A stretch of DNA of 63,741 nucleotides from Candidatus Udaeobacter sp. (GTDB taxonomy: Bacteria; Verrucomicrobiota; Verrucomicrobiia; Chthoniobacterales; UBA10450): contig DASSFL010000138.1 of assembly GCA_035694525.1 (NCBI GenBank), forward strand, positions 1 to 63,741, given 5' to 3'. Shown in pieces: positions 21,346 to 37,909 of this stretch. Position numbers and translations under genes: made by a program. Below the pieces are notes generated by a model, which was given only the letters and a program-made list of their open reading frames with translations, was not told where the DNA came from and searched no databases. Each line of letters begins with the position of its first letter. Position 1 is the first letter of the stretch.

Positions 21346-21569
21346 AACGGGACAACGAGTAACACCCGAAAATCGTTTTGCAACGCCAAAACGAGCGGCA
21401 TTTTTTGCGGGCAAATCGCCGCCCAATTCAATTCGATGTTCAGACGATGCAACGTCGCCCCGCAAGTATAGTCGCCTGGCCCTTTTTTGTAAGGCACAGG
21501 GGAAGGGTGAGGGTTGTTTAGGCAACTGATATTTGCGGGATCCAGCCCCTCACCTTTGTCCTCTCCGCT

Positions 21570-22712
21570 CTAAAGACTCAGAATCTTTCTGAGATTTTTT
21601 GCAGAATCGAAGACTTCCACAGCGCATGCTCGCGCCTGCTTCGATAATCTCGACCAATCACGCAACACTTCTTTTACTGCCGCTTCCGCTTCATCGAAGT
21701 TCCGGATGAACCGAAATCCGCTTTCACTTGGGAGATATCTTGTTGCACCCGTGTCTTCCGTGATCACCGGCCGCCCGAGTGCAAGGAACGCCGCCGCCCG
21801 GTCGCTTACCCACCCGGTTTGCCAGGCGACATCGACGCCCTTAATGGCCGTAAATTCCCCAAGCCCGCTCGCCATGTACCGACGATAAGCACTCGGCGTG
21901 CGCGCAACCCGGTGAGGATCGACAACGCGCCAGCCAAGCTGTTGCAAGCGCGCCCTCTCCGGATCGTCCGGGCTGATATTCATCGCCAGTTCGAACCGCG
22001 CCTCAGGCACGCGTGCTGGTAAACCGAGATAAGGTTCGAACATGATTCTTTTGGACAAGTCGGGGAATTCTCCCGCCACTTCCACGGCACCGCTCCAGTA
22101 CCATTGCCCAATCGTTGTGAATTTAGACAGCCTCGGGCGAGGTTGGCTTTGCAGGAGTTTCGTGTCAGCGAGCGGATAAAACGTTTTCCAGTTCACAGAT
22201 GATTTTGGCAACTGGCAATCACTTCCCTTTACGTTGAGGCCGATCGTCCAAAATTCGTCGTGATACGACTGGCCCAACTCCATTTTGGTCACCCAATAAA
22301 AAATTTCGCTTGGATCCAGATCGCAAAAGATGCGTCGACCAAATTGCAAAAGAAGTGGCGGGTGAATCGAGTAACTGAGATTGAGCAGCGTGTTTGGGCC
22401 GGCGAGTCGATCAAGCAGCGCTTGTTTCGACATTCCGATACAACGCATCGCGTCGAGCTCATGCGTGCTCGCTGGCGGTTTCTGATAGAGCAAACAATAT
22501 CGGCCGGCCAATCCATGCGCACGCAATTGCCGCTGGAAATTGTCGATCCTGACCTGATCGGCACGCGGGTCATCTGTCGCGGGCAGTAACTCGAGCCAGA
22601 TGGCATCGAGCTTCAACCGCTGCAGGCCGAGCATCCATTGCAGGGGGACGGAAAAATTCCCGCCTCCTTCGCGATATTTTGCGGCAAAGCCGCATCCGAG
22701 GAAAACCGTCAT
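21570..22712 (-). CDS. glycosyltransferase-like protein, distant paralogue of 14427..15599
   Basis: 380 aa. Blocks shared with the paralogue: GLQRL..D, FT..G.W, FELA.NI, and TGWVSDRAAAFLALGRPVITEDTG...VFDSAKNL. Confidence 0.6.
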   Translation of the reverse strand: MTVFLGCGFAAKYREGGGNFSVPLQWMLGLQRLKLDAIWLELLPATDDPRADQVRIDNFQRQLRAHGLAGRYCLLYQKPPASTHELDAMRCIGMSKQALLDRLAGPNTLLNLSYSIHPPLLLQFGRRIFCDLDPSEIFYWVTKMELGQSYHDEFWTIGLNVKGSDCQLPKSSVNWKTFYPLADTKLLQSQPRPRLSKFTTIGQWYWSGAVEVAGEFPDLSKRIMFEPYLGLPARVPEARFELAMNISPDDPERARLQQLGWRVVDPHRVARTPSAYRRYMASGLGEFTAIKGVDVAWQTGWVSDRAAAFLALGRPVITEDTGATRYLPSESGFRFIRNFDEAEAAVKEVLRDWSRLSKQARACAVEVFDSAKNLRKILSL

Positions 22713-22767
22713 GCGAGCAGAATCGTCGTTCTGCTCGCATGCTCAAGCCTCGGGGCGTTACGTAGCC

Positions 22768-24495
22768 TTAGAAGATGCGTCCATGCAGCGGGGCGTTCGC
22801 TGTGCCGGTGAACAACTGAGGCTGTCGCGGCTGATCGTTGCAAAGCCCGGCGTTCGGTATCGGGATCACCGAGCCCAGCAAACGCGGCTGTCTTCGCACG
22901 TGTATCTGCTGCTCCAGATCGTAAGCCAAACCAAGCAATCGCGGTTCCCGCAGGAAGGTGCTGTACATCAGGATTCCCGCCGGCCTTCCGCTCTGACGTA
23001 TCGCGGCCGGAAGCGATAAGTTTGGATAACCGGCAACGGCAGGTCCGGTGGAGTTCGTAAGATGCGGTGCGACAATGGCATCGAGGTTCTGCGAGCGGAT
23101 CGCGTTATCGATTCCAGCGCGCGCCGCCCTGCGAGCGTGTGTTCGCGCGGCGATGTAAGCCGGATTTGTGGGATAACCGATGGTCTGTTGCGCCATTTCA
23201 AAGATCTCCTGCCCGTAGTAAACCAATTCTTCGCGGCAATGCGCATTGTTGAACGCAATCAAATCAGCCAAGGTCCGCATGTTAGTGTCAGTAAGTTTGG
23301 CGAGGTAGTCCGCGATTTGCGCCTTGAATTCGTACAGTAGCGCAGTGAACTCGTCATCGGTGTAGGCGAATACGTCACCGGTATCACAGTCAACGATCGT
23401 CGCACCCAGGCTTTCCATTTCGATCAACGCGTTGTTCGCAAACACTACAGTTTCTTCATCGCCGGGGATGCCGCTGCCAAAGTATCTGTAATCAAAATAG
23501 CGAATGTCGCGTCCGATTCGCGCCCCTTGGAGCGAGCCGCGTTGCAGAAACTGCGTGTAGTCGGTGGGCACGTGAATTCCAAGCACTTCACCCCACGGCG
23601 ACTGCAGAACGCCGAGAAGAATTGCGGCATCGGTCACGCTGCGCGCCATCGGCCCGGCGGTGTCCTGCTGATGGGAAATTGGAATGATACCGTATGGTGA
23701 AACAAGCCCGAGAGTAGGTTTCAACCCAACGATGTTCTCAACCGCGGACGGTCCCGTGATGGACCCGTCGGTCTCCGTGCCAACAGCCACGGAGCACAAG
23801 TTCGCAGCCACACCGTTGGCGGAACCGGAGCTGGAACCCCATGATGTGTAACTGAGGTCATAAGCATTCTTCGTATCGCCGCCGCGTGCGCTCCAACCGA
23901 CAGCAAGGGGATAAACATTATCGTTCCCGCGAAAGTTTGCCCATTCGCCCAGATTCGTTTTGCCAAGAATCACGGCACCCGCAGCGCGTAGATGTGAAAT
24001 GATTGTTGCGTCGCCCGGCACACGGCTACCGACCAACGCCAGTGAGCCGGCGGTCGTTTCCATGATATTCGTAGTGCCTTCGCAAACTTCGGGGCCGGTC
24101 GCGATGTTGTCCTTGACCAAAACAGGAATCCCATGCAGCGGGCCACGAATGTGCCCGTTGACGCGTTCATGGTCGAGCTGATTGGCCATGCATATCGCAT
24201 TTGAATTTGTTTGGATGACCGAGTGAAGCAGGGGGTTCAGCGCCTCGATACGCCGCAAGTAATATTCCACCAGCGCTCTACTGGTCACCTCACCCGAAGC
24301 CATTGCGGCCTCGAGCTCGGGGATGCTCGCTTCAGCAATTTGAAAACTTTCCGCGGCTGCCGAAGCAGATCGTGAAAGCAGTGAAGCAAGCCCTCCGCTC
24401 AACAGAGCTGCGCTTCCGAGAGCGGTGTTGCCGAGGAATTTTCGGCGGGATATGGTGTGGTCAGATTCAGTACGGTCAGAGTCTTGCTTGCTCAT
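22768..24495 (-). CDS. amidase-signature family amidase with Tat signal peptide
   Basis: 575 aa from the ATG at 24495. Twin-arginine signal SRRKFLGNTALGSAALL and amidase signature GSSSGSANGVAANL. Confidence 0.85.
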   Translation of the reverse strand: MSKQDSDRTESDHTISRRKFLGNTALGSAALLSGGLASLLSRSASAAAESFQIAEASIPELEAAMASGEVTSRALVEYYLRRIEALNPLLHSVIQTNSNAICMANQLDHERVNGHIRGPLHGIPVLVKDNIATGPEVCEGTTNIMETTAGSLALVGSRVPGDATIISHLRAAGAVILGKTNLGEWANFRGNDNVYPLAVGWSARGGDTKNAYDLSYTSWGSSSGSANGVAANLCSVAVGTETDGSITGPSAVENIVGLKPTLGLVSPYGIIPISHQQDTAGPMARSVTDAAILLGVLQSPWGEVLGIHVPTDYTQFLQRGSLQGARIGRDIRYFDYRYFGSGIPGDEETVVFANNALIEMESLGATIVDCDTGDVFAYTDDEFTALLYEFKAQIADYLAKLTDTNMRTLADLIAFNNAHCREELVYYGQEIFEMAQQTIGYPTNPAYIAARTHARRAARAGIDNAIRSQNLDAIVAPHLTNSTGPAVAGYPNLSLPAAIRQSGRPAGILMYSTFLREPRLLGLAYDLEQQIHVRRQPRLLGSVIPIPNAGLCNDQPRQPQLFTGTANAPLHGRIF

Positions 24496-24776
24496 GTGAT
24501 TCTCCGGTTGACGCTGTTTCGCGAGTAAACAGACCTGGGTTTGATTGGTTGGTGTTGCACGGGGCGGAGGACTCCGCTCCGGTTGATTCCTGCCCGCAAT
24601 GCTTCGCATAGCGACACAGGCGGGTGGATCATAGGCTGGACGATTTCGCGCGCTCGGCTCCATAACCCTGCGTCAGCAGATCGTTTCTGATCTTGCAAGC
24701 GGCCGGAAATTTTTCAGTTTTTCTTGCACTATTTGACCGCTGTGCTCTTCCTTCGCAAATTAGTTGTTCTTGTCGG

Positions 24777-24815
24777 GCACCCGTAGCTCAACTGGATAGA
24801 GCATCTGACTACGGA
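24777..24815 (+). pseudogene. 5' half of tRNA-Arg(ACG) (acceptor 5' strand through anticodon loop)
   Basis: 39 nt identical to 30389-30427 except G3 to A. Identity stops right after ...CTACGGA. Confidence 0.75.
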
Positions 24816-24899
24816 GCGATGTCGCTACGAAGGTCCCCTGACAGGTGCTACGCCGTTTGCTACGGATGCGTGGAATCACTCCAAAACGTCCCGCCTAAG

Positions 24900-25045
24900 T
24901 CAGTGCATGCATTCGAAACACTTTCCGTCGCCGCGATGTGTTTCGGCAATCCAGATCGTTCGCCCGTTGGAACCAATCGCTAATACACAGCCCCAACTCC
25001 AACCGGCTTTGCTGAGACTGTCAGCGATTATTTCCAATACTTCAT
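24900..25045 (-). pseudogene. frameshifted copy 1 of a small conserved ORF family (MKYWEIIAD..LSKAGWSWGC...DAHR.DGK...)
   Basis: The minus strand reads ATG AAG TAT TGG then is missing one nt. Restoring it gives MKYW(E)IIADSLSKAGWSWGCVLAIGSNGRTIWIAETHRGDGKCFECMH*. Confidence 0.6.
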
Positions 25046-25102
25046 GCTATATCGAGCATGGCTCCTCTTCGTAGAACAGCATGGTCGAGCTTTATCGTTT
25101 TT

Positions 25103-27931
25103 TCATTGAGGCGAGACGACCAGTTCTTGAAATCGCGGATCGCCGCGGAGCGGATCGAACATCGGATCGAGCCGGAGCCGCGCGCGAGTCAGCGGTACGT
25201 TTTCAGCCAGCGCCCCTTGGCCCGGCATAGAGAGTAGTTTCTGTAAAGCGGCAATGGCGCGGTCGGTCTCGCCTAGTTGCCCTGCCACCCGGGCGAGGAT
25301 CTCGAGCGATTGTGGACCAAAAGCTGCGTCTTTCTCGATCGGCACCGCGGCGATGGCGCGGTCCGTCAGAGCCAAGGCGGCGGCTTTGTCACCGAGACCC
25401 ATATTGGTCAGCGCAAGATCTCCAAGGAGGATGTAATTTTCCGGTTGTTCTTTGAGGAAAGGTTCCAGTTCGCTGCGCGCCTGTCGCCAACTTTCCTGGG
25501 CGGCGGCACGGTCGCCGGCAACTTCTTGCGCCCAGCCTAAATAAAAGCGCAGTTCGCCATTAATGTAACCTAGCGCTGGACCAGGCTTGGCCAATATCTC
25601 CGTAAGCCGAGAGATCATTTGTGCAGGGCGGCGCTCCAGGATCCCTTGGTAAACCTGCGTTTCCAAGGCGCCCGAGGTTTCGCCAGTTGGCTGCAACGGA
25701 GCAAGAAGTGCGGAGGAACGCGGAAGGTCGCCCTCGGCTTGTGCAATCGCCGCCTTCAGCGCAATCGTATCGACGTCGTCTGGTGTGATATTAAGAACCT
25801 GATCAAGATTGCGCAGGGCTTCCGGGAAACGACGAAGGCTGATATAGGAAAGCGCGTGCTGGGTGAGTAGATTGATGTTGCGTGGGTCGAGCCGCTCGGC
25901 TTGCTTGAAATACAGCTCGCTTTGGTCCCACTGGCCCCGTCTGCGAGCAACATAGGCCAGCGATTCAGGTATCTGGCTGCTATTGGGCAGAAACTGACGC
26001 GCTTGCTCAAAATAAAGCACGGCGGTGTCGTAATCCTTTAAGCAGGCGTAGTGGTAATGGCCCATGGCTAATATGGCCTCGCCGAGATTGGGCTGAAGAG
26101 TAAGCGCGGTCTCGGCTGCATGCCGCGCTTCTTCACGTAGGGCATCCGTGGGTTGAAGAGCCGTTGTGATGTAGCCACGCGCGTCCACATACGAGAGCAG
26201 CGCCCATGCAAGCGCGAACTTCGGATCCAAGCGCACCGCCTCCTTGAGATGTTTCTGTGCGGCAAGGAAGTTGGTAGGTCTGCTATACGCTTTCAATGTA
26301 TACGCTAACCCGCGCAGGTAGGCGTCGTAAGCTTCGGTGTTGTCCGTTGGTATGGCGGCGATAACTTGCTCTTCCCGACCGGTGAGCTTCGCTTGCAACG
26401 ATTCCGCGATGGCTTTGGCGACCTCACTCTCGACAGCAAAGACGTCGGTCAGTTTTCGATCAAATGTGTCGGCCCAAAGATTAGAGTTACTCGCTGCTTT
26501 GATTAGCTGCACGTTCACACGCACTACGTCGCCGCTCTTCTGCACGCTGCCTTCCAGGATGTGAGCTACGCCAAGTTGCTTCGCGATCTCGCCGAGATTC
26601 TTGGGTTTGCTTTGATAGTGTTGCGTGGAAGTGCGCGAAATGACTCTTAAATCCGCTATGCTAGCCAGCCGCGTCAGGATCTCCTCTTGAATGCCGTCGG
26701 CGAAATAGGCGTTGTTCGAATCGCGGCTTAAGTTCTCAAACGGAAGCACTGCGATGCTCTTTTCGGGCGTAGGACTAAATAATCCGCTTTCCCAAACATT
26801 CCAGGCGATGGCCGTTGCCAAAGCAACCAACGCTGCAATTAACGCAGCGATATCCGGTTTCCGCCGCACCCATTTGCGGGTGTGTGTAAAAAATCCACTG
26901 CGCTTCGCTTGGATTGGTTCGTGCTTTAGCCAGTGTTCCAAGTCTTCAGCCAGCGCGAGAGCAGAAAAGTAGCGACGCTCTGGATCTTTCTCCAGGCACT
27001 TCAGACAAATTGTGGACAGATCGCGAGCGATGTTTCGATTCCACAAGCGCGGTTGCCGTGGTTCAGTGTCCAGCAGTAGCCGCATCGTTTGATAGGTTGT
27101 TCCTCCGGCAAAAGGTGGATGGCCGGTGAGCAATTCGTAGAAGACCGCGCCAAGTCCATAGACATCTGTGGCCTTGCCGACGGCCGCGTTGTTTCCCGCA
27201 GCTTGTTCAGGTGCCATGTAACTGGGTGTGCCCATTACTTCCAGGGTGCGTGTGACCGTGCTCTCAGCGTCGACTAATCGGGCTAGGCCAAAATCGGTCA
27301 GATGCGGTTCGCCTTTTGCATCCAACAGAATGTTCCCAGGCTTGATATCTCGATGCAATATCCCGTGTTCATGCGCGTAATGCACAGTGCGCGCTACCTT
27401 TGCGATTAATTCCGCCGCTTGCCGGATCGACATCGGGACGCGCCTGACTGTTTCGTCAAGCTGGCCCCCCTCAACGAAATTCATGCTGAAGTAGCAGCAA
27501 CCATCGCGCTCCCCAATTTCATGAATGGGAACGATAAATGGATGGTCGAGGGTGGCAGCGGCTTCCGCTTCGCGGCGAAAGCGCTTCAGATGCGCTTCGG
27601 TAGCCCAGGGGCCCAGGCCGATGACTTTGAGTGCGACGGTGCGATTGAGACTTTTCTGATGCGCGCGATAAACTACGCCCTGACCGCCCCGGCCGATCTC
27701 CTCCAGCAATTCGTAGTCACCAAAGTCAGCCAGCATTTCAACCGGAGGCGTACCGTGTTTTCTCCGCGGCATGGGTTCTTGATCGGTCGTGTTTTCATCC
27801 TCGTCGTAGAGCAGATCAAAGCCGGTCTCTAACAGGCAAGCCGGGCAAACTCCCCGCGGCGCGTCCGGAGAGATCTTTGCGCCGCACTTTCCGCAAACGC
27901 TATCAGCAGTCTTCACTTTTGGCGCGCACAC
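25103..27931 (-). CDS. Ser/Thr protein kinase with N-terminal zinc-ribbon, TM helix and C-terminal TPR array
   Basis: 942 aa. Motifs CGKCGAKI...CPAC, HRDIKPGNILL, DFGLA, GTPSYMAPE. One TM helix, an SIAVLPFENLS segment, then TPR-like repeats. Confidence 0.9.
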   Translation of the reverse strand: MCAPKVKTADSVCGKCGAKISPDAPRGVCPACLLETGFDLLYDEDENTTDQEPMPRRKHGTPPVEMLADFGDYELLEEIGRGGQGVVYRAHQKSLNRTVALKVIGLGPWATEAHLKRFRREAEAAATLDHPFIVPIHEIGERDGCCYFSMNFVEGGQLDETVRRVPMSIRQAAELIAKVARTVHYAHEHGILHRDIKPGNILLDAKGEPHLTDFGLARLVDAESTVTRTLEVMGTPSYMAPEQAAGNNAAVGKATDVYGLGAVFYELLTGHPPFAGGTTYQTMRLLLDTEPRQPRLWNRNIARDLSTICLKCLEKDPERRYFSALALAEDLEHWLKHEPIQAKRSGFFTHTRKWVRRKPDIAALIAALVALATAIAWNVWESGLFSPTPEKSIAVLPFENLSRDSNNAYFADGIQEEILTRLASIADLRVISRTSTQHYQSKPKNLGEIAKQLGVAHILEGSVQKSGDVVRVNVQLIKAASNSNLWADTFDRKLTDVFAVESEVAKAIAESLQAKLTGREEQVIAAIPTDNTEAYDAYLRGLAYTLKAYSRPTNFLAAQKHLKEAVRLDPKFALAWALLSYVDARGYITTALQPTDALREEARHAAETALTLQPNLGEAILAMGHYHYACLKDYDTAVLYFEQARQFLPNSSQIPESLAYVARRRGQWDQSELYFKQAERLDPRNINLLTQHALSYISLRRFPEALRNLDQVLNITPDDVDTIALKAAIAQAEGDLPRSSALLAPLQPTGETSGALETQVYQGILERRPAQMISRLTEILAKPGPALGYINGELRFYLGWAQEVAGDRAAAQESWRQARSELEPFLKEQPENYILLGDLALTNMGLGDKAAALALTDRAIAAVPIEKDAAFGPQSLEILARVAGQLGETDRAIAALQKLLSMPGQGALAENVPLTRARLRLDPMFDPLRGDPRFQELVVSPQ

Positions 27932-28277
27932 TGAGATTACGTGAATTTCATAATCGCGCCTTAGTCAGACTGCCGAGAGTGTCAGCTATGATATTCCAGT
28001 AATTTACGCGACGGATTGTGCTCTTTTGCTCTACTCACGGCAACGACAAAATGTTCCCTGACGGGGGTTTTGCTTGTAGTGCGCTGACCAAATCGCGTAG
28101 GACAACGCCGCCGACAGCGAGGCCTCCAATGAGGCACACTTTTAGCCGTAGGATTCGCGGTACCAGCGTCCCTGATGATCGTGCCACACGTGATCATCAG
28201 TAGCTACAGCGGCCAGCGCCATGTGTGGCGTCCGTTCTTTATGCAGGGCTGGGCCAGCGTATTACGGAGATCACGTC

Positions 28278-28478
28278 ATGTGGGGCGGGCTGCTCCTGCA
28301 AACAGTGTTCACCTGTGTCTTTGCTGCCTTGATCGTTAATATCCCGCGGCCGCGGAAGAAAACGGCGGCGCAGCGCCCTATCCCGAAAGAGAGAGGGCAG
28401 ATCACCTCGGGAGTAGCACTTCAAAATCCCACGCACGCGGTTTCGCTGCCTATTGATTGCCGCCGATGGTGCTGCTGA
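28278..28478 (+). CDS. small membrane protein (66 aa), tentative
   Basis: MWGGLLLQTVFTCVFAALIV (TM helix) followed by a basic tail. Its stop overlaps the next ATG (TGATG). Confidence 0.3.
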   Translation: MWGGLLLQTVFTCVFAALIVNIPRPRKKTAAQRPIPKERGQITSGVALQNPTHAVSLPIDCRRWCC

Positions 28479-28699
28479 TGAAAACGAACACTTCTCCAGT
28501 CCTTCCTGGCGAAGTCCAGGCATACGTTCACCTTCAGCGCCAGATCCACGACGCGTTGCGTAAGGAACATCCCGAATGGGTCGAGCCAAACGGCGAATCC
28601 CCCATGTGTGATTCTTACGAGGCGCGTCTCGCGGAACAGCTCGATACTTTCACGCGAAGGGGATCCCCCGCCAGGAAAGGAGATTTTCCAAGTCAATGA
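28478..28699 (+). CDS. small hypothetical protein (73 aa), tentative
   Basis: MKTNTSPVLPGEVQAYVHLQRQIHDALRKEHPEW.... Coupled to both neighbours by 1-nt and 4-nt overlaps. Confidence 0.35.
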   Translation: MKTNTSPVLPGEVQAYVHLQRQIHDALRKEHPEWVEPNGESPMCDSYEARLAEQLDTFTRRGSPARKGDFPSQ

Positions 28700-29034
28700 C
28701 CGCGATTACGGTCCGGATCCCAGATGAATCCGTCGAACTCGACAATGTCGAGGAGCGCAGGGTTTTGACGGCCCTCGAAGTCATTTATGAGGGTGGCTGC
28801 CTGCACGGCAAGACCGCCGATTTCTCCACGCGCGACCTTGAGCGCGTTGTGGTTGGCCTCCACGTGCGTAATTGGCATTTCTTTGAAACTTATAAGCGCA
28901 CGATCTGCGTCGATATTCGCAGCCAGCGAACGATCTTTCGCTGCGCCGGCACTTTTAAACCCAACATCAGCAGTTGGTGGGAGAGGGTGCTCGCGGTCCT
29001 TCGCATGCGCAAAGTGAAGGCCATCGTAATATGA
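28696..29034 (+). CDS. hypothetical protein (112 aa), tentative; competes with antisense ORF 28693..29139
   Basis: ATGA overlap with the upstream ORF and high third-position GC. The antisense 148-aa ORF sits in the mirror frame and cannot be excluded. Confidence 0.35.
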   Translation: MTAITVRIPDESVELDNVEERRVLTALEVIYEGGCLHGKTADFSTRDLERVVVGLHVRNWHFFETYKRTICVDIRSQRTIFRCAGTFKPNISSWWERVLAVLRMRKVKAIVI

Positions 29035-29353
29035 AATTTTTCTAGTCACGGGGGCGCATCGCCCCGCAGTTTTTTCGTCGATACATATGAAGACGATAAT
29101 TTTGATACTGGTGGCAATAGCGACGATGTCGTTTGCCATGTGCCTAGATGCATAAGGGCAACGCCTTCCCCTGCCGGAAAGTCACGCAGACTCGCGAACA
29201 TCGTTGCCTGCGCAATTTCGGGTCAGTGTGGAGAAAGGCATTATCACGCTAAGGGACGTGAAGAGTGGAAAAGTCCTGGGGCAGGACGACCTTTGAGAGG
29301 TGGGGAGTTGGAGGAGACAGCGCAAATCCAGAAAGTGAGCGCCCAGCTTGAAG

Positions 29354-29509
29354 CGAGCAAACCTGCGCCGCAAATGGTCAACAATCCCTAAGGCCGCATC
29401 GATCTTTGTGGCAGATGCGCATCGCGGTGACGGAAAACGTTTCGTCGTGCGCGCCGAGGATAAGCTGACTGCGTTTCTTGAACTGGAATCGGCGGTGAAA
29501 CTGGACTGA
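29354..29509 (+). pseudogene. C-terminal remnant (copy 2) of the small GWSWG/DAHR.DGKRF ORF family
   Basis: Reads ...KAASIFVADAHRGDGKRFVVRAEDKLTAFLELESAVKLD*. Clear nucleotide similarity to 33400-33470. No usable N-terminus, and other gene fragments lie upstream. Confidence 0.45.
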
Positions 29510-29668
29510 GACAAAGACACGAACTGGCTCTTGTTCGATCCGAACGAGTTCCAGAGATTTGCTCAGCAAAAAGGAGGCATGATGAAAAAAGGGAGAGGAA
29601 AAGTCCTAAAACGTCTCTGTCGTTCGTCGTATTATTGCGGCAGCGGAAACTCAGACAGAGAAAACCCC

Positions 29669-29995
29669 ATGAAAACTGACGAGCATCTCGAACCGACAGC
29701 CGTTTTCATTCAGAGAGTAACCGCCGCCGTTTCGGAACTGAAAGACCATCTGCAACAGGATTACGAGCGCACATATCCCGGCTTGGGCGAAATCATCCGC
29801 ATTGTGCTCGACGAAGAGGAAGCCAAAGCGTGGGGGTTATCATTTTTCCCGCACTTGTTCCCGCCCGACATGGTGGAAGCGCACATCGCCAATCTCAATC
29901 TGCATCCGGTGGAGACGAAGCATGAAGGTGTTTTCGAGCGGCACGACTTCAACAAATTTGAAACCGATCAATCTGCCTTCGCGGCATGTGCATAG
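29669..29995 (+). CDS. hypothetical protein (108 aa), tentative
   Basis: Internal ATG of track ORF 29531..29995 (MKTDEHLEPTAVFIQRV...). No family recognised. The 3' end overlaps the integrase remnant. Confidence 0.35.
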   Translation: MKTDEHLEPTAVFIQRVTAAVSELKDHLQQDYERTYPGLGEIIRIVLDEEEAKAWGLSFFPHLFPPDMVEAHIANLNLHPVETKHEGVFERHDFNKFETDQSAFAACA

Positions 29996-30264
29996 GAAGG
30001 CGAACGGTTTGCATACCCCGATTTGCTTTTTAGTTTTTCGGCGGTTTCCCATTCCCCATTCAAGATCGGCTCGATAATCAATTTGGCGCGCCCCTTTGCA
30101 ACTGCGACGACGTTGGTTCGCAAGAAGCGGTGAACAGTGCGAACACCCTTCCCAGAGTTTGACGGCGGCTCGAAGCGAATATAGTAAGGCCCTCCGGGCC
30201 GCCGCGGCGGCGGGAGGTAAAATGTTCGGCCATGGACATGAAACAACAAACGACGTTCTTTCAT
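29968..30264 (-). pseudogene. probable N-terminal remnant of a tyrosine integrase
   Basis: The 98-aa ORF ...GPYYIRFEPPSNSGKGVRTVHRFLRTNVVAVAKGRAKLIIEPILNGEW... resembles integrase arm-binding N-termini. No catalytic domain follows. It starts 125 nt from the tRNA-Arg 5' end. Confidence 0.35.
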
Positions 30265-30388
30265 AGTCCCGAGGCTATGAACAAGGTCATGATTTATGCA
30301 ACGGATTTTGCTACGGAATTTTTGTGGTATGAGCCAACACGCTACTGCAGCATTTGCACGGAATTTTCATTGGTAAAATTGGATTTTA

Positions 30389-30462
30389 GCGCCCGTAGCT
30401 CAACTGGATAGAGCATCTGACTACGGATCAGAAGGTTAGTGGTTCGAATCCTCTCGGGCGCG
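30389..30462 (+). tRNA. tRNA-Arg (anticodon ACG), no encoded CCA
   Basis: Hand-folded cloverleaf. Acceptor GCGCCCG/CGGGCGC, D-arm GCTC-AACTGGATA-GAGC, anticodon arm TCTGA-CTACGGA-TCAGA, T-arm AGTGG-TTCGAAT-CCTCT (one U-U pair), discriminator G. Confidence 0.9.
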
Positions 30463-30781
30463 CTCTTGATAACAAGGCACTTACGCCGATTCTAGCGGCC
30501 TAAAGAAAAATCCTGTTTGCCATCTGCTGGGGCTATGTCGCTCGCCCGGCCACTGCGTAGCGGCAAAGGGGGCTTCTCAAATGTTCTGCGTAACCTCGCG
30601 CTGGAATTCCTGCAGTACAACAGTAACGGCCGGAAATGAATCCTCACGACGAGGAGTCACTGAAGGTCAGAACAATAAGACGTAAATAGAAAAGAAATAA
30701 GACTTATGAAAGTGAAATTGGTAAAGGCTGGATTGCAGGTAAACAATCCAACCTCAACCAAAATGAATACAAAAAATAACA

Positions 30782-31270
30782 ATGAAAACTAATTATTGGT
30801 TTAATCGAAATCGTCTCCTATCAGGTCTGCGCCTCGGAACCGCACTGCTTCTCGTCCTATCAGCCCCCTTCATCTCAGCGAGTTCGTCGCAGGCGGAGCG
30901 TGCGCAGACGTATCATGGCGCGCTTACGGGTGGTACGTTTTTGTGTGACGGCACTCCGGTTAACGGTCCTATCGTCACCGGTACGTGGAACGTTATCATC
31001 GATCCCCAAACGCCGGCTCAGGTCACGCTCAACGTATTCTACAACGGCGGCCACCACCTGGCGTTCGGGTACAACGCTTTGATGCAAGTTTCATTTGTCA
31101 ACGGCGTCTACGTATTCTCGGGCTTTGGAGACGCCGCGGCGGCAACGCTCGATACGACGGCGAATCCGGCGACGTTCTCCTGGCGCGTCGAACTCGGTGT
31201 CAGCTGCCCAGACCAGAACCCCTACAACTCGCTGACGTACTTTGGAGTGGCGGATCGCGGACGTCGATAG
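30782..31270 (+). CDS. secreted hypothetical protein
   Basis: 162 aa with signal peptide ...LLLVLSAPFISASSSQA. No family recognised. Confidence 0.6.
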   Translation: MKTNYWFNRNRLLSGLRLGTALLLVLSAPFISASSSQAERAQTYHGALTGGTFLCDGTPVNGPIVTGTWNVIIDPQTPAQVTLNVFYNGGHHLAFGYNALMQVSFVNGVYVFSGFGDAAAATLDTTANPATFSWRVELGVSCPDQNPYNSLTYFGVADRGRR

Positions 31271-31292
31271 GAGCGGCTAAAGGACTTGGAGA

Positions 31293-31715
31293 CTAATGGT
31301 CTCGTTCCTCCCCGTTCCAGCCGGTACCCCGCCGTCCTTTTAAACTCACAAGGGGCGGCGGCTCCAGCCCTTCTACTCTTCTGGTCGAATCGCCAGGACT
31401 GTGACGGTTCCTCCCGTCACGGGCGTGCTGATCCTCGCGCGAAACATGCCTGACACGCTCCCGGCAAACCATTCTGTTGTCGCATTCAATGGAACGGGGA
31501 TTGTGGTCAACATTGTCCAGGCTTCCCGCTGACGACGCTCCCGGAATCATGGGCGTCTTTTGTGGGCAACATTCAATGGTGACGTGCCCGACTGACACTG
31601 AACCGTTGCCTGTAATGCGAAATGTAGTAAACCTCGGTTCTGAAAAGAATTGGGTTAATCCTACTCCGGTAGCAGCGGCGTTTTGAAACGCCATAGTTAC
31701 GTTTTCGGTGCTCAT
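31293..31715 (-). CDS. hypothetical protein, weak call
   Basis: 140-aa ORF. Only the N-terminal half looks protein-like. A competing + strand ORF lies at 31477..31686. Confidence 0.25.
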   Translation of the reverse strand: MSTENVTMAFQNAAATGVGLTQFFSEPRFTTFRITGNGSVSVGHVTIECCPQKTPMIPGASSAGSLDNVDHNPRSIECDNRMVCRERVRHVSREDQHARDGRNRHSPGDSTRRVEGLEPPPLVSLKGRRGTGWNGEERDH

Positions 31716-31972
31716 TTTTCCTTTCGGTAATTAGTTTTTCGGGAACTTTGTTCCGTCATTACCGTAGAACCGAAATGGAGCTTGGAAGGCGTGTTTCCTT
31801 CCCGCGCGGTTTTTTTAAAGGTGGCCGCGCGTCACGAGCCACGCTGCGAATAGGCTGATCTGATCGGGAGTGCGACGCGGCCGCCCCGTGATGGGTCTCC
31901 ACTCCGTCAAGGGTGGCCTTTGCGGCGTGAGCATAATTACCGCTTCCGCCTTCCGCTCCGGAAAGGAAACGG

Positions 31973-32395
31973 ATGAAACTTCCCTCTGATGTCGAGTTTC
32001 ACGAAGACGTTCGCCTAGTTGTCTGGAGACCGCGCGGGGTGCTGAACAGGGCGGCTGTTAACAGAATCATAACTGTCATCGGAGAACTTGAGGCCACGTT
32101 GAAGGAGCCTTTCAATCGCTTCGCCGATACCCTTCAAGCGGATGCAGTTGATCTCAACATCGAGTACCTCATTCGCGTTTTTCTCTACCGGCGCTTCTTT
32201 TATGGAAAACGTCCACCGGTGAAGGCAGCGGTTCTCGCGACCGATTCCACCATTGTCCATTATGCCCGGTTGCATGCGATACTGACTCACGGTTCCCCGA
32301 TCAATGTCCGCATCTTCCAGGATCGCAAAGAAGCCGCACAATGGCTCGGCGTCCCCGTCGAACTGCTGGCGGCGAAGAATTCATCCGTGGATTAG
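31973..32395 (+). CDS. STAS/SpoIIAA-like small protein (tentative family assignment)
   Basis: 140 aa. The pattern VVWRPRGVLNRAAV..., ...KAAVLATDS..., ...FQDRKEAAQWLG resembles STAS-fold DUFs. Confidence 0.5.
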   Translation: MKLPSDVEFHEDVRLVVWRPRGVLNRAAVNRIITVIGELEATLKEPFNRFADTLQADAVDLNIEYLIRVFLYRRFFYGKRPPVKAAVLATDSTIVHYARLHAILTHGSPINVRIFQDRKEAAQWLGVPVELLAAKNSSVD

Positions 32396-32556
32396 TGCAG
32401 TCTAACAGTTTTGTGACGCCAAAAGCGTCCATCGCTGTTTTGAAAATTGAATTTCCCACACCTCAACCTTCGGGCTTGTTTCGCCGGTTTGAATGCGCCC
32501 GTTTATATCACTTTGTCATTGCTGTGTGGCGAGTAAAAGAGGCAGAATCCGCCGTG

Positions 32557-33225
32557 ATGATCGCACGCCCGATGCGCCTCTGGACCATGGTGGGGCTCGC
32601 GCTCGCCCTCTTCTCGATGCCGTTCGTGATCGGGTTGTTCACTGCCTTCCGGGTCCCTTTAACCACTCGGAACGTCTTGCTTCGAGAGATCATCTTGTTC
32701 GCTTTAGCAGCTTTTGTGTTGTTCATCATCAGGAGAAAGGAGCGGCTAGGTTGGGACTCCGTGGGTTTGCAACGTCCGGCGTTGGGCAAGACCGCTATAT
32801 GGGTACTCATCACGTTTGTCGGCGTGGCGCTAGCTATTACCCTGGCATTTGGCTTTATAAAACTCTTCAGCCTTCCAATGGACAACGTTGACTCTAAAGC
32901 ATACGACGCATTGCCGACATGGGTACTGCTAGTAGTCATCATTCGGGCTGGATTCGTCGAAGAACTTTTCTATCGCGGGTATCCGATCGAACGGCTGCAG
33001 TCACTGACGGGCAGCCGAATCTTTGCGGCTGGGATCCCGCTGGTGATATTCGCGGTGTCACATTACCGCCAAGGCCAGGCGGGAATTATCGTTGCGATGC
33101 TGACCGGCGCAGTTCTTACGGGTGTCTACGTCTACAAGCGAAACCTTTGGATCACAATCACTGTGCATTTCCTCGGCGATTTCATCCCGAATATTCTCGT
33201 GCCCCTGTTCGCCGCCGAACAATAA
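32557..33225 (+). CDS. CPBP-family intramembrane glutamic endopeptidase (CAAX protease/Abi-like)
   Basis: 222 aa from the ATG at 32557, polytopic. Motifs GFVEELFYRGY, FAVSHY and VHFLGDF. Confidence 0.8.
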   Translation: MIARPMRLWTMVGLALALFSMPFVIGLFTAFRVPLTTRNVLLREIILFALAAFVLFIIRRKERLGWDSVGLQRPALGKTAIWVLITFVGVALAITLAFGFIKLFSLPMDNVDSKAYDALPTWVLLVVIIRAGFVEELFYRGYPIERLQSLTGSRIFAAGIPLVIFAVSHYRQGQAGIIVAMLTGAVLTGVYVYKRNLWITITVHFLGDFIPNILVPLFAAEQ

Positions 33226-33281
33226 GGTATCAAGAGCAGCCCTTGGTGATACGACATGTTGGAAGGTAGAGAAACCGTCGC

Positions 33282-33511
33282 ATCAAGTACTGGGAAATCA
33301 TCGCCGACAACTCAGCGCATCCGGTTGGAGTTGGGGCTGCGTCTCGGCGATTGATTCCAACGGGCGAACAATCTGGATTGTTGACGCGCATCGCGACGAC
33401 GGAAAGAGGTTTGTAGCTGGCAGCGATGTAAAGCTGACCGCGTTTCTTGAACTTGAGAGGATCACGCACGAATTAGCGGTTTCAGCGCTCCTTGGCGATG
33501 ACACTCATTGA
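33282..33511 (+). pseudogene. copy 3 of the small GWSWG/DAHR.DGKRF ORF family (start codon lost, one frameshift)
   Basis: Reads ATC AAG TAC TGG GAA ATC ATC GCC GAC AAC (IKYWEIIADN). It then shifts frame into ...SASGWSWGCVSAIDSNGRTIWIVDAHRDDGKRFVAGSDVKLTAFLELE.... Confidence 0.6.
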
Positions 33512-33534
33512 GATCAGGGACGTGGCCGGCCGTC

Positions 33535-33750
33535 TCATACAGGATTAAACGCCGTACTTTTGCATAGGGGAAATTTGCCAGCGGCTTCCAATAAGACGGG
33601 CTTCGTAAAATGCTTCACGTACCGGCACTCCTTGCATACCCATCGCATCGAACGTGTCTCCTGCGACTGCTCGATCTGGCCTAACGCATTCAACGCCATA
33701 TCTCGAGTTGCTTCGAGGGCTGCTTTTAGCAGCTTGAGCGCAGGGTCCAT
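33535..33750 (-). CDS. small zinc-ribbon-like protein, possibly decayed
   Basis: 71 aa. It has CKEC, but the second pair reads FPLCKS (only one Cys). No family confirmed. Confidence 0.3.
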   Translation of the reverse strand: MDPALKLLKAALEATRDMALNALGQIEQSQETRSMRWVCKECRYVKHFTKPVLLEAAGKFPLCKSTAFNPV

Positions 33751-34408
33751 AAAAACAGGCTACTGTGATGAAGGCGAGGCAACGCACATCGCCTTTCGTG
33801 TCTCCTGACGCGCGACAAAGCCTCCAAGCACAAGCGCCGCACGCCAAGGAAACCCCTCCTTCCAAGCTTGTCCTACGGAAACAACGGAACAAAGTTTCGA
33901 AAACAGCTGACCGGCGGACGCTAAACGCATCCTAGCGCGATGTGGGGTTCCTTTGCCGCGCCGTCGCACGGAACTTTCGGGGCCCGAGTCCGTAGTACTT
34001 GGTAGAAGCATCGGGAAGTAAAATAATGAATTGGGACAAGCTTCTCGTAATCGGTGGCGATCGAGACAGCTTCAAGGCTCTCGTCGGTCGTAAGATTCGC
34101 GAACGACGTGGAGACGAGCGGCAACTTGCCGAGCATCGTACGACAAAGCATCAGCTCCAAGCGAGAAACTCATGCGTTGCCGATGCAAGAAGTTATCGCG
34201 TTGCTCGACGATTGCCCGTGCCTACCCCAGCACCATTCGACTGGAAAGCACTAATTCTCGTGAAGCGGCTCAGTAAAATTGGGAGTGCGTGGCTCCAGAG
34301 ATTTCGCGATTACCAATTCTAGCCGAACCAGGCAAATAGTGCTTCACGCGCTTTTCAAGTCACGTGCATCCAGATAGAATTGCTGCTGTAACGAGCGCTT
34401 CGTTAAGG

Positions 34409-34451
34409 ACGGATCAGAAGATTAGTGGTTCGAATCCTCTCGGGCGCGCCA
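34409..34451 (+). pseudogene. 3' half of tRNA-Arg(ACG) with encoded CCA
   Basis: 34409-34448 equals 30423-30462 except for one variable-loop G to A (34421). It starts at ACGGA and is followed by CCA, whereas the intact copy is followed by CTC. Confidence 0.8.
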
Positions 34452-34554
34452 CATTCTTTTGCCGTATTCTTGTCCCCGAAGCCTGCTCTTAAGAACGCCG
34501 CCCCAAATTTTTGGGCGAGGTCCATTCACCAACCCCGCAAATCAGACAGATACG

Positions 34555-36690
34555 TTACCTGTCAGGGATGCCTTTTGATCTGGAACTGAACAATTCTCGC
34601 TCCGGATTGTTGACCGGATCGTATTCCACAAACCCGTTCTGCACAGTCGAATTGATGCCGTAGCTCGTGACAGTGAGAGTTTTTCCGTCGGCGCTTACAT
34701 CCAGCACGTTGTAGTTGAATGTGTCCGGGCTGTAAAAGTCAGCTGGTTGGCGCAGCCTGTCTGCGTGCGGATCACCGGAGCGCCTGACATCCTGCAACCC
34801 ATGATAACCTGCGAGGCCGATGGGTTCGAGGTTCTCGGCGATCTGAGCGTTGGCAATGCTGTCCGCAAGTTTCTTTACCAGGGCGAAGCTATGGTTCGAA
34901 ATAAGGTCCGGGCCAGTTGCGCCGAGGGGCCCGCAGACGATCTCGAAGCAGTATGGCGCCTTTATGTAGCTCGCTTGAACACCAGTCTGGCCAGTCGGCG
35001 AGTAAAACAATTCGTTGATTCGGTTCTGATGGTCGTCTGTTGCGAGGAAAACCACGTTGTGGATCCGATGATCAGCGATGAATTTCAACAGCTCATTACG
35101 CTCCGCGCGATAACCGCCCATCCATGACTTTCCGCCATCGCTGCTGACAGGCGCGTAGGTGCTCGGGGCCGGCGTTAATGTGAGCGTCGCGCCGCTGGCA
35201 ATGGTGGCGTTGTTATTGATCGAGAATGTCGTACCGTCGGTGTTGATCGCGTTGATGGTCGTATTCGCGGGAACGCCCGCGCCGAAAACGCCCTGACCTG
35301 CAACAAGGCCGACCGTACTGGCAACTGTGACCGTCCTCGTATTGTTTGTAGAGCCGGTGGTGACGATCGAGCTAATCGAACCAAGAGTGCCGTAATCCGC
35401 AGTTGTCGGCGGATTGACCAGTGTCAGGCTCCCGCCGATTGGCCCGATCTGGTCGATTGGATCGGAAATGTTGATGAATTTCCAAGTTGTGCCTGTGTGT
35501 TCCGCGTCTAAAAGCGTTTGTTCCAACCACGCAAGCTGCGTCGCACCCAGCATTGTGCGGTTGGGATTGTCGGCGCGCGAGCCAGTCTCATCGGCGTTTG
35601 CGGCAGTCTTCATCCGGATGTCGCGATAGGAGCGACAATCTGTGTTGATGAAGATTGCGTTCCTGCTCCATTGTTGAGCGAAATAAAGTTGGCGTGTGCC
35701 ATTCGTGCGTGGGTCCAACGGTGCATTGATCAGGCCACGCTCCTTCATTGGCTGGTAGTTCTCGAAAACTTGCTGCAAAGTTTGTAACCCGCCGCTCTTG
35801 TTCAGGAAGGGAACGCTCCCATCGTTGGGAGTTACATCATTGACAGAGTTGCGTGCATCCACGCCTGCACCGGTGGAAAAATCGAAAGGCGGGCCGCCGG
35901 TGGTGCTCCCGACGCCTCCGCCTGCCGGAGCGCCGCCGTTAATGTACTGCTTGTTGCCGAGTTCGTGGTTGTCATACGCAGTGTAATTGCCCTGGCCGGC
36001 GAAGAATGGTTGCAGGCAGCTCTGACCACCGATGTTTACGGGCACAAATTGCTCGCGATATTTGCGCGAGAAATCATCGAATAACTGCGACTCAGTCGCC
36101 GTTGGAACAGTGACCGTGGGATCTGGAATGTTTCCGGTGCTATGGACAGCTGGCGATCCGATGCTCGCGGAGGTTTCATACTCCGTGTCTCCGTCGAACA
36201 TGAAGAAATCCAAGTTCTTTGCCGGTACCTGGCTTGCGAGGGCATAAGGACGAATCAATCCATCGCAGTCACCGCTGAACCCAAAATGGACTGGAGCATT
36301 GGCTGTCGGGGTCGGAGCGGTCTTGAACTTGCCGACGTTACTTGTGACCGAGGCATTCGTGGTTTGGAACCGGTAATAATAAACGGTTCCTGGCTCCAAG
36401 CCGCCGACATTGCTCTTCACGGTGTAATCAGTCGGCGAGCCAGCAGTCCCCGCCGGTAAGGTAGTAACTCCCGTAATGAACGTTGGGTCCTGGCTGATTT
36501 GCACGTTGATTGTGGTCGGTTGCGGATTGGCTTCGTCTTTGGCGCGTGTCCAGACGATCACGTCGTTGGTTGTTGCGTCGCCGGCAGCGACCCCGAGAAA
36601 GGTGACGTCGGCATCGGCGCTCGTAGTTTTGAGCATGTAGCCCGCGACGAGCACCAAAGTTGCGATCCGAAGTGAAGCGAAGTTTTTCAT
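34555..36690 (-). CDS. PhoD-like alkaline phosphatase/phosphodiesterase (secreted)
   Basis: 711 aa from the ATG at 36690. Sec-type signal MKNFASLRIATLVLVAGYML. PhoD-like N-terminal beta domain (...VYYYRF...) and metallophosphatase motifs (FGFSGDCDG, YDNHE). Extra repeat-rich insertion. Confidence 0.8.
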   Translation of the reverse strand: MKNFASLRIATLVLVAGYMLKTTSADADVTFLGVAAGDATTNDVIVWTRAKDEANPQPTTINVQISQDPTFITGVTTLPAGTAGSPTDYTVKSNVGGLEPGTVYYYRFQTTNASVTSNVGKFKTAPTPTANAPVHFGFSGDCDGLIRPYALASQVPAKNLDFFMFDGDTEYETSASIGSPAVHSTGNIPDPTVTVPTATESQLFDDFSRKYREQFVPVNIGGQSCLQPFFAGQGNYTAYDNHELGNKQYINGGAPAGGGVGSTTGGPPFDFSTGAGVDARNSVNDVTPNDGSVPFLNKSGGLQTLQQVFENYQPMKERGLINAPLDPRTNGTRQLYFAQQWSRNAIFINTDCRSYRDIRMKTAANADETGSRADNPNRTMLGATQLAWLEQTLLDAEHTGTTWKFINISDPIDQIGPIGGSLTLVNPPTTADYGTLGSISSIVTTGSTNNTRTVTVASTVGLVAGQGVFGAGVPANTTINAINTDGTTFSINNNATIASGATLTLTPAPSTYAPVSSDGGKSWMGGYRAERNELLKFIADHRIHNVVFLATDDHQNRINELFYSPTGQTGVQASYIKAPYCFEIVCGPLGATGPDLISNHSFALVKKLADSIANAQIAENLEPIGLAGYHGLQDVRRSGDPHADRLRQPADFYSPDTFNYNVLDVSADGKTLTVTSYGINSTVQNGFVEYDPVNNPERELFSSRSKGIPDR

Positions 36691-36919
36691 ATTATGCGTT
36701 CTTGGTTTGTTGGATGATTGCTGAAAAACGCCGAAGTAACTTGAAGCGTGTGGCGATTTGAAGGCGTTCTTGTAAAACTTTCGTGACGCTTCCGCACGAC
36801 ACCTCGTACGCCTGGTCGACTGCACGCACCGTCGGCGCGACGCCGCGGATCAGAGTTTGGCACGATGGCCCACGCCGGGCGGGAAGCCCGCTGCCGCAGG
36901 ACGATGAGATTAACCCGAG

Positions 36920-37909
36920 CTACTGAAAATACGGCCGGATTTTGGCGTACTTTTTGTCGCCGATTCCGTTTACTTTCTTCAAATCATCGGCGCTGCGAAA
37001 CGGTCGCGAGGCAATAATTCGACCAGCCATCACCGGTCCGATGCCCGGAATCATTCTCAATTCCTTTTCCGTCGCGGCGTTGATGTCGATCCTGCCAAGC
37101 TCGATTTGCTCTTTCGCGTGCGACTTTTGAGATTCAACCGAGCCAACTGCAGCAGTCGACCGGGTGGGCAATGGCGCGGCAATTCGGTGGAACGTATTCG
37201 CCAGAGGCAATGTCCGGGATTGAGCGTTCTTTTCGGCTACGAAAACACTAAAAGGCGCTGGCGGTTGAGCGCGGACATTTAATCGCTCGCCGTTAACGCC
37301 CCAGGCTCCGATTCTCTCCAGCTTTGCGGCGTCTTCGAATTGTTGAAGTTTTTCTACTTCTAGTCGCGAATTTCTTAAACCCGGCGGCACCGCTTTGAAG
37401 CCATAGTTTCGTGCAAGCCCATTACGAACCAACTGCTCGCCAAGATCACCGTCTTTAGTCTGCACAAATGCGTAAAACCGCTCGAGCTTGCTGTGACCTA
37501 TCGCATCCGACATGCGCGTAAAGACCGTAAATGGCTCGGACAATTTCTCCCGGGTAAACTCTTTAGCTGCCTGGCCCACTTCGATGGCCTGGGGCACAGT
37601 GATCGCAAAATATTTTGCCTGTTCAACGAGACGCGCCGGATTCATTGCGTCCGTTTCAGGCGCGTCAACCATGTAGAGGCGAAAAATGTATTCCCTCGCA
37701 CCCGAGCTGGCGTGAAAACTGTCACCATCATTCGCCGGATTTGAAATCAGCCTGCAATTCTCCAGGACGATCCAATCTTTAGACTCGCGTGCGCCAGCAT
37801 CGACCCCCGCCACGCAAACAATCGCCAGGGCAAGGAGTCCAATCTTGTTGCGCAATTTGGTAAATTGCCCAGTCACGAACCTGCAAGCGAAAATCATATC
37901 CGACATCAC
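36920..37909 (-). CDS. secreted staphylococcal-nuclease-like domain fused to a ComEA-type helix-hairpin-helix DNA-binding domain
   Basis: 329 aa. SNase motifs NDGDSFH and RLYMVDAPE. C-terminal IDINAATEKELRMIPGIGPVMAGRII...VNGIGDKKYAKIRPYF. Confidence 0.8.
   Translation of the reverse strand: MMSDMIFACRFVTGQFTKLRNKIGLLALAIVCVAGVDAGARESKDWIVLENCRLISNPANDGDSFHASSGAREYIFRLYMVDAPETDAMNPARLVEQAKYFAITVPQAIEVGQAAKEFTREKLSEPFTVFTRMSDAIGHSKLERFYAFVQTKDGDLGEQLVRNGLARNYGFKAVPPGLRNSRLEVEKLQQFEDAAKLERIGAWGVNGERLNVRAQPPAPFSVFVAEKNAQSRTLPLANTFHRIAAPLPTRSTAAVGSVESQKSHAKEQIELGRIDINAATEKELRMIPGIGPVMAGRIIASRPFRSADDLKKVNGIGDKKYAKIRPYFQ

Follow-up and report, generated by a model that had tools for sequence, protein, structure and literature searches.

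Two site-specific integrations of opposite polarity probably explain a tRNA-Arg gene bracketed by its own halves in Candidatus Udaeobacter

Introduction

How does an intact tRNA gene come to lie between two displaced halves of itself? The question is raised by a 63.7-kb stretch of DNA (63,741 nucleotides, nt) from Candidatus Udaeobacter sp., contig DASSFL010000138.1, the whole of which we refer to as the window. Udaeobacter are among the most abundant and least cultured soil bacteria. In the window an intact tRNA-Arg(ACG) gene is preceded by a copy of its 5' half, 5.6 kb upstream, and followed by a copy of its 3' half, 3.9 kb downstream, with all three pieces on the plus strand. A sequence-only reading of this DNA had offered two models: (a) a single insertion split the native gene and brought its own replacement, or (b) two different elements sit on either side of the functional gene. 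Comparison with related genomes and viral contigs fits the second model best. We consider it probable that two site-specific integrations of opposite polarity struck the same anticodon loop, leaving an island X (24816-30388, 5573 bp) on the left of the intact gene and an island Y on its right.

Results

The intact tRNA gene and its displaced halves

The only tRNA detected in the window by ARAGORN is tRNA-Arg(ACG) at 30389-30463. Rfam placed the same gene at 30389-30462 with a score of 65.6 bits and returned no other RNA family in the 63.7 kb. The 5' fragment differs from nt 1-39 of this gene at a single position (G3A), and the 3' fragment (34409-34448) differs from nt 35-74 by a single change of G to A in the variable loop, as seen by both direct reading and repeat finding. 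Self-BLAST aligned the 5' and 3' fragments to the intact gene with E values of 1.4e-12 and 1.2e-13, and the last 22 nt of the tRNA matched the window at two 3' sites only, with no match in shuffled sequence. The pentamer ACGGA, which is the anticodon ACG with the following two loop bases, is common to both fragments, terminating the 5' piece and opening the 3' piece. The trinucleotide CCA stands directly 3' of the displaced 3' piece and CTC directly 3' of the intact gene. The coordinates that the sequence-only reading gave for the three pieces are all correct, and its description of the ACGGA overlap and of the two 3' ends is borne out.

An intron-containing or split tRNA gene was ruled out. 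Protein genes and a complete tRNA occupy the 9.6 kb that separates the halves, and the Rfam scan of the whole window gave no group I or group II intron there.

An empty site in related genomes

To place the fragments in their native context we used the neighbouring amidase as a query against species-representative genomes, which gave 80 loci, nearly all from Candidatus Udaeobacter or other Chthoniobacterales soil metagenome-assembled genomes. In ~45 of the 80 the amidase has a tRNA-Arg(ACG) gene 150-300 bp upstream, which in turn is preceded by a conserved block. The 5' fragment of the window occupies exactly this position behind the same block, and the 40 nt in front of it match the native upstream sequence of L064 and other genomes.

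Five related Udaeobacter genomes (L064, L038, L004, L026 and L028) carry a single uninterrupted tRNA at the point where the two fragments would join. In all five the homology on the left breaks at tRNA nt 39 and that on the right resumes at nt 35. The closest of them, L064, is collinear with the window and ~95-96% identical in the flanks; its alignments cover window positions 12675-24815 and 34409-44244 and meet within one tRNA, with the same overlap of 5 nt. Downstream of its tRNA, L064 has CCA and then the sequence that follows the 3' fragment in the window. As the empty sites break at 24815 and resume at 34409, the 9593 bp from 24816 to 34408 are inserted DNA, and the two fragments are the two halves of the native gene. 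The uninterrupted tRNA-Arg between the amidase and PhoD genes, by which the sequence-only reading proposed to recognise an empty site, was found in L064 and L038. Each native half carries one substitution in an otherwise invariant tRNA, which suggests that neither event is very recent.

The PhoD-like block (34459-36918), which lies directly beyond the 3' end of the native tRNA, is shared by L064 and L038 and missing from L004, L026 and L028, and this tRNA thus has a second variable segment beside it. The block is not marked by an additional tRNA fragment; a search past the PhoD gene for a further, older 3' fragment found none.

The 5 bp shared by the borders would also suit a DDE transposon of the Tn7 or Tn3 type, since a direct duplication of this size is what such transposons make. 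The borders at 24816 and 34408 lack terminal inverted repeats, the open reading frames (ORFs) gave no transposase domain, and the same break point recurs in many genomes and phages beside tyrosine integrases. We rejected this explanation, having found neither inverted repeats nor a transposase, and regard it as extremely improbable. With both crossovers placed in the anticodon loop, as we infer, ACGGA would be the overlap of two identity blocks and not a target-site duplication.

Island X has its own pair of ends

A 21-bp arm module (TGCWACG..TTTGCTACGGA; repeat D11) is present at both ends of X, 31 nt past the 5' fragment and ~72 nt before the intact tRNA. The module holds two GCWACG sites 12 nt apart, and the exact 10-mer TTTGCTACGG occurs at two places only in the 63.7 kb, in the left-end module and at 30307. 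Arm-type repeats flank the tRNA-derived core of X in a layout like that of a phage attachment site (attP), which has parallels in the phage contig L088 and also in L179, L180 and L182.

Both ends recur elsewhere. Beside the amidase we found 11 fragments of the tRNA 5' half ending at nt 39 or 40, in 10 of the 80 loci; 3' fragments occur in 3 of the 80. The junctions that follow the 5' fragments belong to at least two families. In type A, comprising the window and L010, L023, L062, L027, L041 and L018, ~55 bp are common after ACGGA, including the GCTACG repeats and TTTGCTACGG; six species besides that of the window have this left end after a 5' half next to the amidase. In type B the end point is nt 40; the example in L068 is a 5.4-kb element with an integrase matching PF00589, 84 bp from the intact tRNA and directed away from it. 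The right-end block of X, 30009-30428, has 74-79% nucleotide identity to L179 and L180 (homology from 30009-30011), and L181 and L182 have the same layout. In L179 and L181 this right-end block stands before a full tRNA and no 3' fragment is present within 7.8 kb and 8.4 kb, respectively. In L180 the homology to X halts in the tRNA at nt 40, where a type-B left end starts. The ends of X and their homologues are shown by these alignments. The matching arm modules and recurring ends, together with the phage attP and the integrase stub described below, indicate that X has two ends of its own and that its attP carried the tRNA 5' half with an upstream region.

Several related loci show further variation. 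L023 holds a serial array (7790-9870) that starts with the native upstream block and a 5' half. After a 460-bp remnant comes another upstream block with a 5' half, then a 1.4-kb element, and finally the full tRNA behind a third such block; ~80 bp of native-like upstream sequence came with each element. Another serial array of 5' halves lies at 4551-5133 of L180. In L027 and L041 the 5' fragment and 55-bp type-A end run into large, ordinary-looking genes (a GH94 enzyme and a BNR/sortilin protein) and no intact tRNA-Arg was found within 5-10 kb of the 5' fragments; either these islands are very large or the locus is rearranged. The motif TTTTCATAGGTRA lies just upstream of the tRNA or its 5' half in L179 and L082, and ~60 nt inside the type-B left ends of L068, L059 and L035. 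X-type elements carry it on the P-arm side, type-B elements on the P' side, and it could be a shared protein-binding site or promoter element.

An integrase stub and a divergent phage lineage

The sequence-only reading had noted an integrase remnant next to the tRNA, and such a remnant exists. A hidden Markov model (HMM) made from 49 integrases encoded at the loci gave a single signal in the window, its best match, at ORF 29968-30264(-), whose start lies within the X right end; this match covers the N-terminal HMM positions 10-98 and is not significant alone (E 0.3). Integrase homology in the window ends at ~30010, leaving a copy without the catalytic domain. The ORF has 79 homologues (P0121-P0199), all of 54-169 amino acids (aa) and none full length, several of them with weak matches to DUF6538. 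One homologue (P0169, 169 aa) aligns to residues 28-182 of the integrase of phage contig L082 with 30% identity (E 4e-14). In L182 an N-terminal fragment is followed by a 220-aa ORF with a PF00589 match, and is preceded by the same arm module and tRNA start. On these alignments we identify the ORF as the N-terminal stub of a tyrosine integrase. The stub adjoins tRNA-Arg(ACG) or its 5' half in all six contigs examined (the window, L176, L179, L180, L181 and L182), and has the look of a fossil, widely inherited, from which tRNA-Arg(ACG) in many Udaeobacter now draws its upstream region. The type-B integrase of L068 gave no match to the window or to the loci.

Full-length relatives are found in viral contigs. 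In IMG/VR, 25 contigs carry the 5' half of tRNA-Arg(ACG), 23 ending at ACGGA and 2 at ACGGAT. A homologous integrase lies near the 5' half in ~20 of these viral loci, with direct adjacency checked in L081, L082 and L088. The order in L088 is integrase, two TTTGCTAC sites 12 nt apart, tRNA-Arg nt 1-39 and two more TTTGCTAC sites, and in L082 an exact Udaeobacter-type 5' half stands beside a PF00589 integrase. Whilst the L082 and L068 integrases match PF00589, most members of the family are missed by Pfam. The alignment of the phage homologues (A1) keeps R251, K287, R352, H375 (nearly invariant) and Y385; the canonical first histidine (of HxxR) is a tyrosine, Y349, in this family. The integrase profile matches the XerC-like structure 4a8e (E 4e-8) and XerA 5hxy (E 1e-3). 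By both catalytic residues and fold, the phage homologues belong to the tyrosine recombinase superfamily. Among the IMG/VR contigs L081-L103, ~20 have ttctctctgtcggattgg...ggccac directly after a 5' half of another host type (GCAGCCATAGCTCAATTGG...), and these contigs share the integrase family that is undetected by PF00589.

Island Y and the case for a second element

Island Y has the layout of a classical 3'-fragment island, with the intact tRNA followed by ~3.9 kb and then by a 3' fragment that starts in the anticodon. Fragments of tRNA-Arg 3' halves starting exactly at ACGGA were found in 68 metagenome contigs, on varied tRNA-Arg backgrounds, and this 3' start point is therefore usual. The same pattern gave 0 matches to 3' halves in IMG/VR; as it sees only identity blocks starting exactly at ACGGA, it allows no fair comparison of 5' and 3' frequencies. 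A candidate arm motif, CAATTCTA, is present in three copies at 34250-34385, with GATTCTAGC at 30486, and is weak. Another motif, CYTAACGAR, found in type-B left ends and inverted at the Y right junction, has 3 copies in the window where 1.15 are expected; this is not significant and we retain it as a lead only.

If X and Y were instead a single composite element, model (a) of the sequence-only reading, the 9.6 kb would have inserted once with its own complete tRNA-Arg, sharing only the ACGGA core with the target, destroying the host tRNA-Arg and compensating with its own copy. Such an element could have arisen in a donor genome by recombination between the outer att sites of an X-tRNA-Y array. 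The clean boundaries with exactly 5 bp shared agree with this, as do the single point changes in the two native flanking fragments, which fit equal age, and the presence in both parts of a 76-aa protein family. Only one near-identical contig was found, L176 (99.5%). From the X right end through the tRNA and Y its structure agrees with that of the window; it ends inside X, so that its left junction is unseen. No haplotype with X only or Y only was found at the exact site. Against a composite stands the complete end pair of X, with its matching arm modules around the tRNA 5' half. The X-type right ends that lack a downstream 3' fragment (L179, L181) and the stop of homology at nt 40 in L180 point the same way. 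The X left end and the Y right end share no short repeat beyond chance 7-mers, and excision would require an integrase that pairs hybrid att sites. We disfavour the composite element, since the left 5.6 kb comes with a full end pair of its own, and think it quite unlikely.

A different possibility is that the split arrangement was built in another Udaeobacter lineage and imported ready-made, the conserved flanks serving for homologous recombination, with no integrase acting in the present lineage. In favour of this, a 95%-identical relative has an empty site although both islands have decayed. The amidase gene (22675-24674) is ~75% identical to L064 at the nucleotide level whereas the DNA on both sides is 93-97% identical; this segment looks like an amidase allele replacement by recombination, and the divergence would mark an imported allele ending ~100 bp from the tRNA. 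However, identity to L064 is 93.6% over the 141 nt that precede the insertion and 96.4% over the 500 nt that follow it, like the rest of the genome, and the comparison therefore does not extend the imported tract to the insertion itself. Import is further weakened by L001, which has the closest amidase (87% aa identity) with an uninterrupted tRNA beside it, although L001 is a short contig whose downstream sequence differs from the native flank of the window and which may be occupied by a 3'-type island. Import would concern the arrival of the structure rather than its first making, and is compatible with two integrations; we regard it as unlikely.

Several observations weigh against two independent integrations. 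The integrase stub and all of its close homologues (79/79) are truncated, which makes a recent autonomous insertion unlikely, so that help in trans or import by homologous recombination must be assumed. The type-A left end of L023 has a native-like upstream block as its partner, not an X-type P arm. The promoter scan detected no consensus promoter upstream of either tRNA copy, and the promoter and terminator scans around both copies gave nothing. No integrase signal was found in Y by the Pfam ORF scan, the integrase HMM or PHROGs, and neither the 80 genome loci nor IMG/VR nor a metagenome scan yielded any relative of Y. The evidence that would make Y independent consists of the 3' fragment alone and a weak arm-like motif, and the copies of the 76-aa family in both X and Y would also fit a common origin.

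A proposed course of events

On balance we favour two separate hits, in either order, by tyrosine-integrase elements on the anticodon loop of a single native tRNA-Arg(ACG), situated between the amidase and PhoD genes. The attP of the X family would read integrase, arm sites, the element's own upstream region, tRNA nt 1-39 and arm sites. Integration of X would strand the host 5' half behind the native promoter and join the 5' half of the element to whichever 3' half lay downstream. Y would be a classical element with an attP holding tRNA nt 35-74; its integration would replace the 3' half and displace the native one, CCA included, to a downstream position. The central, working tRNA would then be a chimera of two element-borne halves, the 5' half from X and the 3' half from Y. 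It is presumably functional, and its expression is a part of the explanation that we infer. Both islands would have decayed afterwards. As X retains an integrase stub only and Y has no integrase, both are remnants and not active islands.

Content of the insertion

The features of the locus are collected in Table 1. The sequence-only reading had described the insertion as gene-poor and rich in pseudogenes. A Pfam scan carried out ORF by ORF agrees in part: several gene fragments are present, together with two intact genes encoding the 942-aa kinase and the 294-aa protease. The GC content dips to 0.47 at 30250-30749.

Table 1. Features of the tRNA-Arg(ACG) locus in window coordinates
Feature	Position	Strand	Remarks
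Amidase, conserved left neighbour of native tRNA-Arg	22768..24663	-	Pfam PF01425, E 2e-71
Native 5' fragment, displaced; putative attL of island X	24777..24815	+	tRNA nt 1-39, G3A; native upstream block still in front
X left end, P' arm, type A	24816..24870	+	GCTACG repeats; 21-bp module TGCTACGCCGTTTGCTACGGA at 24846-24866
Truncated copy A, 76-aa hypothetical-protein family	24915..25047	-	tblastn with P0001: 72% identity, residues 5-44
Ser/Thr kinase with TPR repeats, intact, 942 aa; X cargo	25103..27931	-	Pfam Pkinase E 6e-54 and TPR families
Fragment copy B, 76-aa family	29387..29488	+	Repeat finding, tblastn
N-terminal remnant (~85 residues) of X tyrosine integrase	29968..30264	-	124 bp from intact tRNA, transcribed away from it
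X right end, P arm	30009..30388	+	Integrase start; 21-bp module TGCAACGGATTTTGCTACGGA at 30297-30317; upstream region of the tRNA, apparently element-supplied
Intact tRNA-Arg(ACG)	30389..30462	+	ARAGORN, Rfam; 100% identical to native L064 tRNA
Island Y, presumed classical island with 3' half; mosaic content	30463..34408	+	3946 bp; missing from empty sites
Rce1-like CAAX protease, intact, 294 aa; Y cargo	32341..33225	+	Pfam PF02517, E 2e-18
588-bp repeated module: frameshifted copy C of 76-aa family and convergent 71-aa zinc-ribbon-like ORF	33285..33871	+	L174, L175 match
Native 3' fragment, displaced, with native CCA; putative attR of island Y	34409..34451	+	tRNA nt 35-74, one change
PhoD-like phosphatase, right neighbour	34555..36825	-	Pfam PhoD and PhoD_N; in L064, L038; not L004, L026, L028

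The kinase of X matches the PADLOC models of the defence kinase PD-T4-6 (E 3e-82). The match covers the kinase domain alone and is therefore not evidence for a defence role. In Y, a protein identical to the Rce1-like protease is encoded on L176. Imperfect inverted repeats of ~108 nt (70-79% match), at 31736-31843 and 33797-33903, bracket a 2.2-kb block containing the protease gene, which may be a nested element; one of these arms also matches the end of the 588-bp module in L174. The 588-bp module itself is 95% identical to L174 and L175, whose flanks are unrelated, and behaves like a small mobile or recombining cassette.

The 76-aa family (motif GWSWGCV..GRTIWIVDAHRGDGKRF..LTAFLELE) is without a Pfam domain, and databases contain more than 7900 of its homologues at ~80% identity. 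Its three defective copies in the window, A, B and C (the last at 33285-33511), all lie within the insertion and the other 54 kb hold none; repeat finding and self-BLAST show copy A to be an inverted repeat of copy C. The family is also present in L059, L163, L174, L175 and L180, and occurs within type-B elements. A Peptidase_S74 origin for the fragment at ~29035-29388 was dropped, as Pfam on the homologous L063 peptide gave no confirmation. Ten island ORFs searched against PHROGs gave no match. Exact-protein look-ups of the amidase, PhoD and two X ORFs were not on record, and those look-ups that did have matches returned the same haplotype only (L176-L178). Near-identical contigs are present in JGI sample 3300085480 and in run SRR25158410.

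Discussion

A tRNA bracketed by its own 5' and 3' halves needs no new mechanism, as two integrase elements of opposite polarity acting at one anticodon loop would suffice. What sets this tRNA-Arg apart in Udaeobacter is the balance of scars, 11 on the 5' side and 3 on the 3' side across 80 species-level genomes, where databases show the opposite, with 5'-side cases at ~1 in 25. The integrase lineage in IMG/VR with its matching 5' halves offers candidate phage-host links for Udaeobacter, L082 having the exact Udaeobacter-type half. The family could also serve as a tool, an integrase and attP that together target tRNA-Arg(ACG) from its upstream side. Decayed cases such as X and Y will escape island finders that depend on an integrase gene.

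Two wider proposals follow from the locus. We see an even chance that a divergent tyrosine-integrase lineage, mostly invisible to Pfam, is shared by soil phages and Udaeobacter islands and always brings an upstream region with the 5' half of tRNA-Arg(ACG). In that case elements would enter this tRNA chiefly from its 5' side, and expression of tRNA-Arg(ACG) in many Udaeobacter would start from a phage-derived upstream region beside a fossil integrase. It is a long shot that the 9.6 kb is a composite mobile unit which knocks out the host tRNA-Arg(ACG) and supplies a replacement under its own upstream region. If so, the host would be dependent on the element.

Comparison with known systems

The Islander database allows for 5' fragments that lie upstream of a tRNA gene; of its 3919 islands, 159 leave a 5' fragment and 3760 a 3' fragment (Hudson, Lau and Williams 2015, PMC4383910). 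The statement in the sequence-only reading that a 5'-half copy is not expected from tRNA-targeted integration was thus too strong, since an attP holding the 5' part of a tRNA gives a 5' fragment by the same mechanism. As in Islander, the window has an intact tRNA with end fragments in the same orientation, the 5' fragment upstream and the 3' fragment downstream, and both islands fall within its size range of 2-200 kb. The tyrosine integrase gene that Islander looks for within an island is represented in X by the stub and is absent from Y.

Island X resembles the Islander 5'-fragment islands in having an intact tRNA with a same-orientation 5' fragment upstream, a tyrosine integrase gene beside the rebuilt tRNA, a presumed crossover in the anticodon loop and relatives with an empty site. 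Unlike these islands, its integrase is an 85-residue stub that would fail the Islander integrase filter, and the same tRNA also bears a 3'-fragment island on its other side. Island Y, in turn, is like the classical 3'-fragment islands in its intact tRNA, ~4 kb of DNA and same-orientation 3' fragment starting in the anticodon, and differs from them in having neither integrase nor excisionase and no relatives found.

Islands that integrate upstream of a tRNA-Arg gene have been described in Klebsiella pneumoniae, namely arg2A-VII and related islands (bioRxiv 10.1101/2020.11.02.365908). These are similar to X in their upstream-side insertion at tRNA-Arg, which in Klebsiella proceeds via a distinct integrase clade. 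The sublocation there is the D-loop, whereas in the window it is the anticodon loop; the two cases are also unlike in host phylum and in integrase family.

Partial tRNAs left behind by serial insertions are known from the tycheposons of Prochlorococcus (bioRxiv 10.1101/2020.12.28.424599). Like such tandem arrays, including the tandems of Islander, the window shows one tRNA reused as a landing site, several partial copies and decayed elements, and the 5'-half arrays of L023 and L180 are true serial arrays as in tandem islands. Unlike them, the islands of the window lie on opposite sides of the working tRNA and not in series on one side. What is modestly new here is this two-sided arrangement, together with the local excess of 5' scars in Udaeobacter and the link to a divergent phage integrase lineage.

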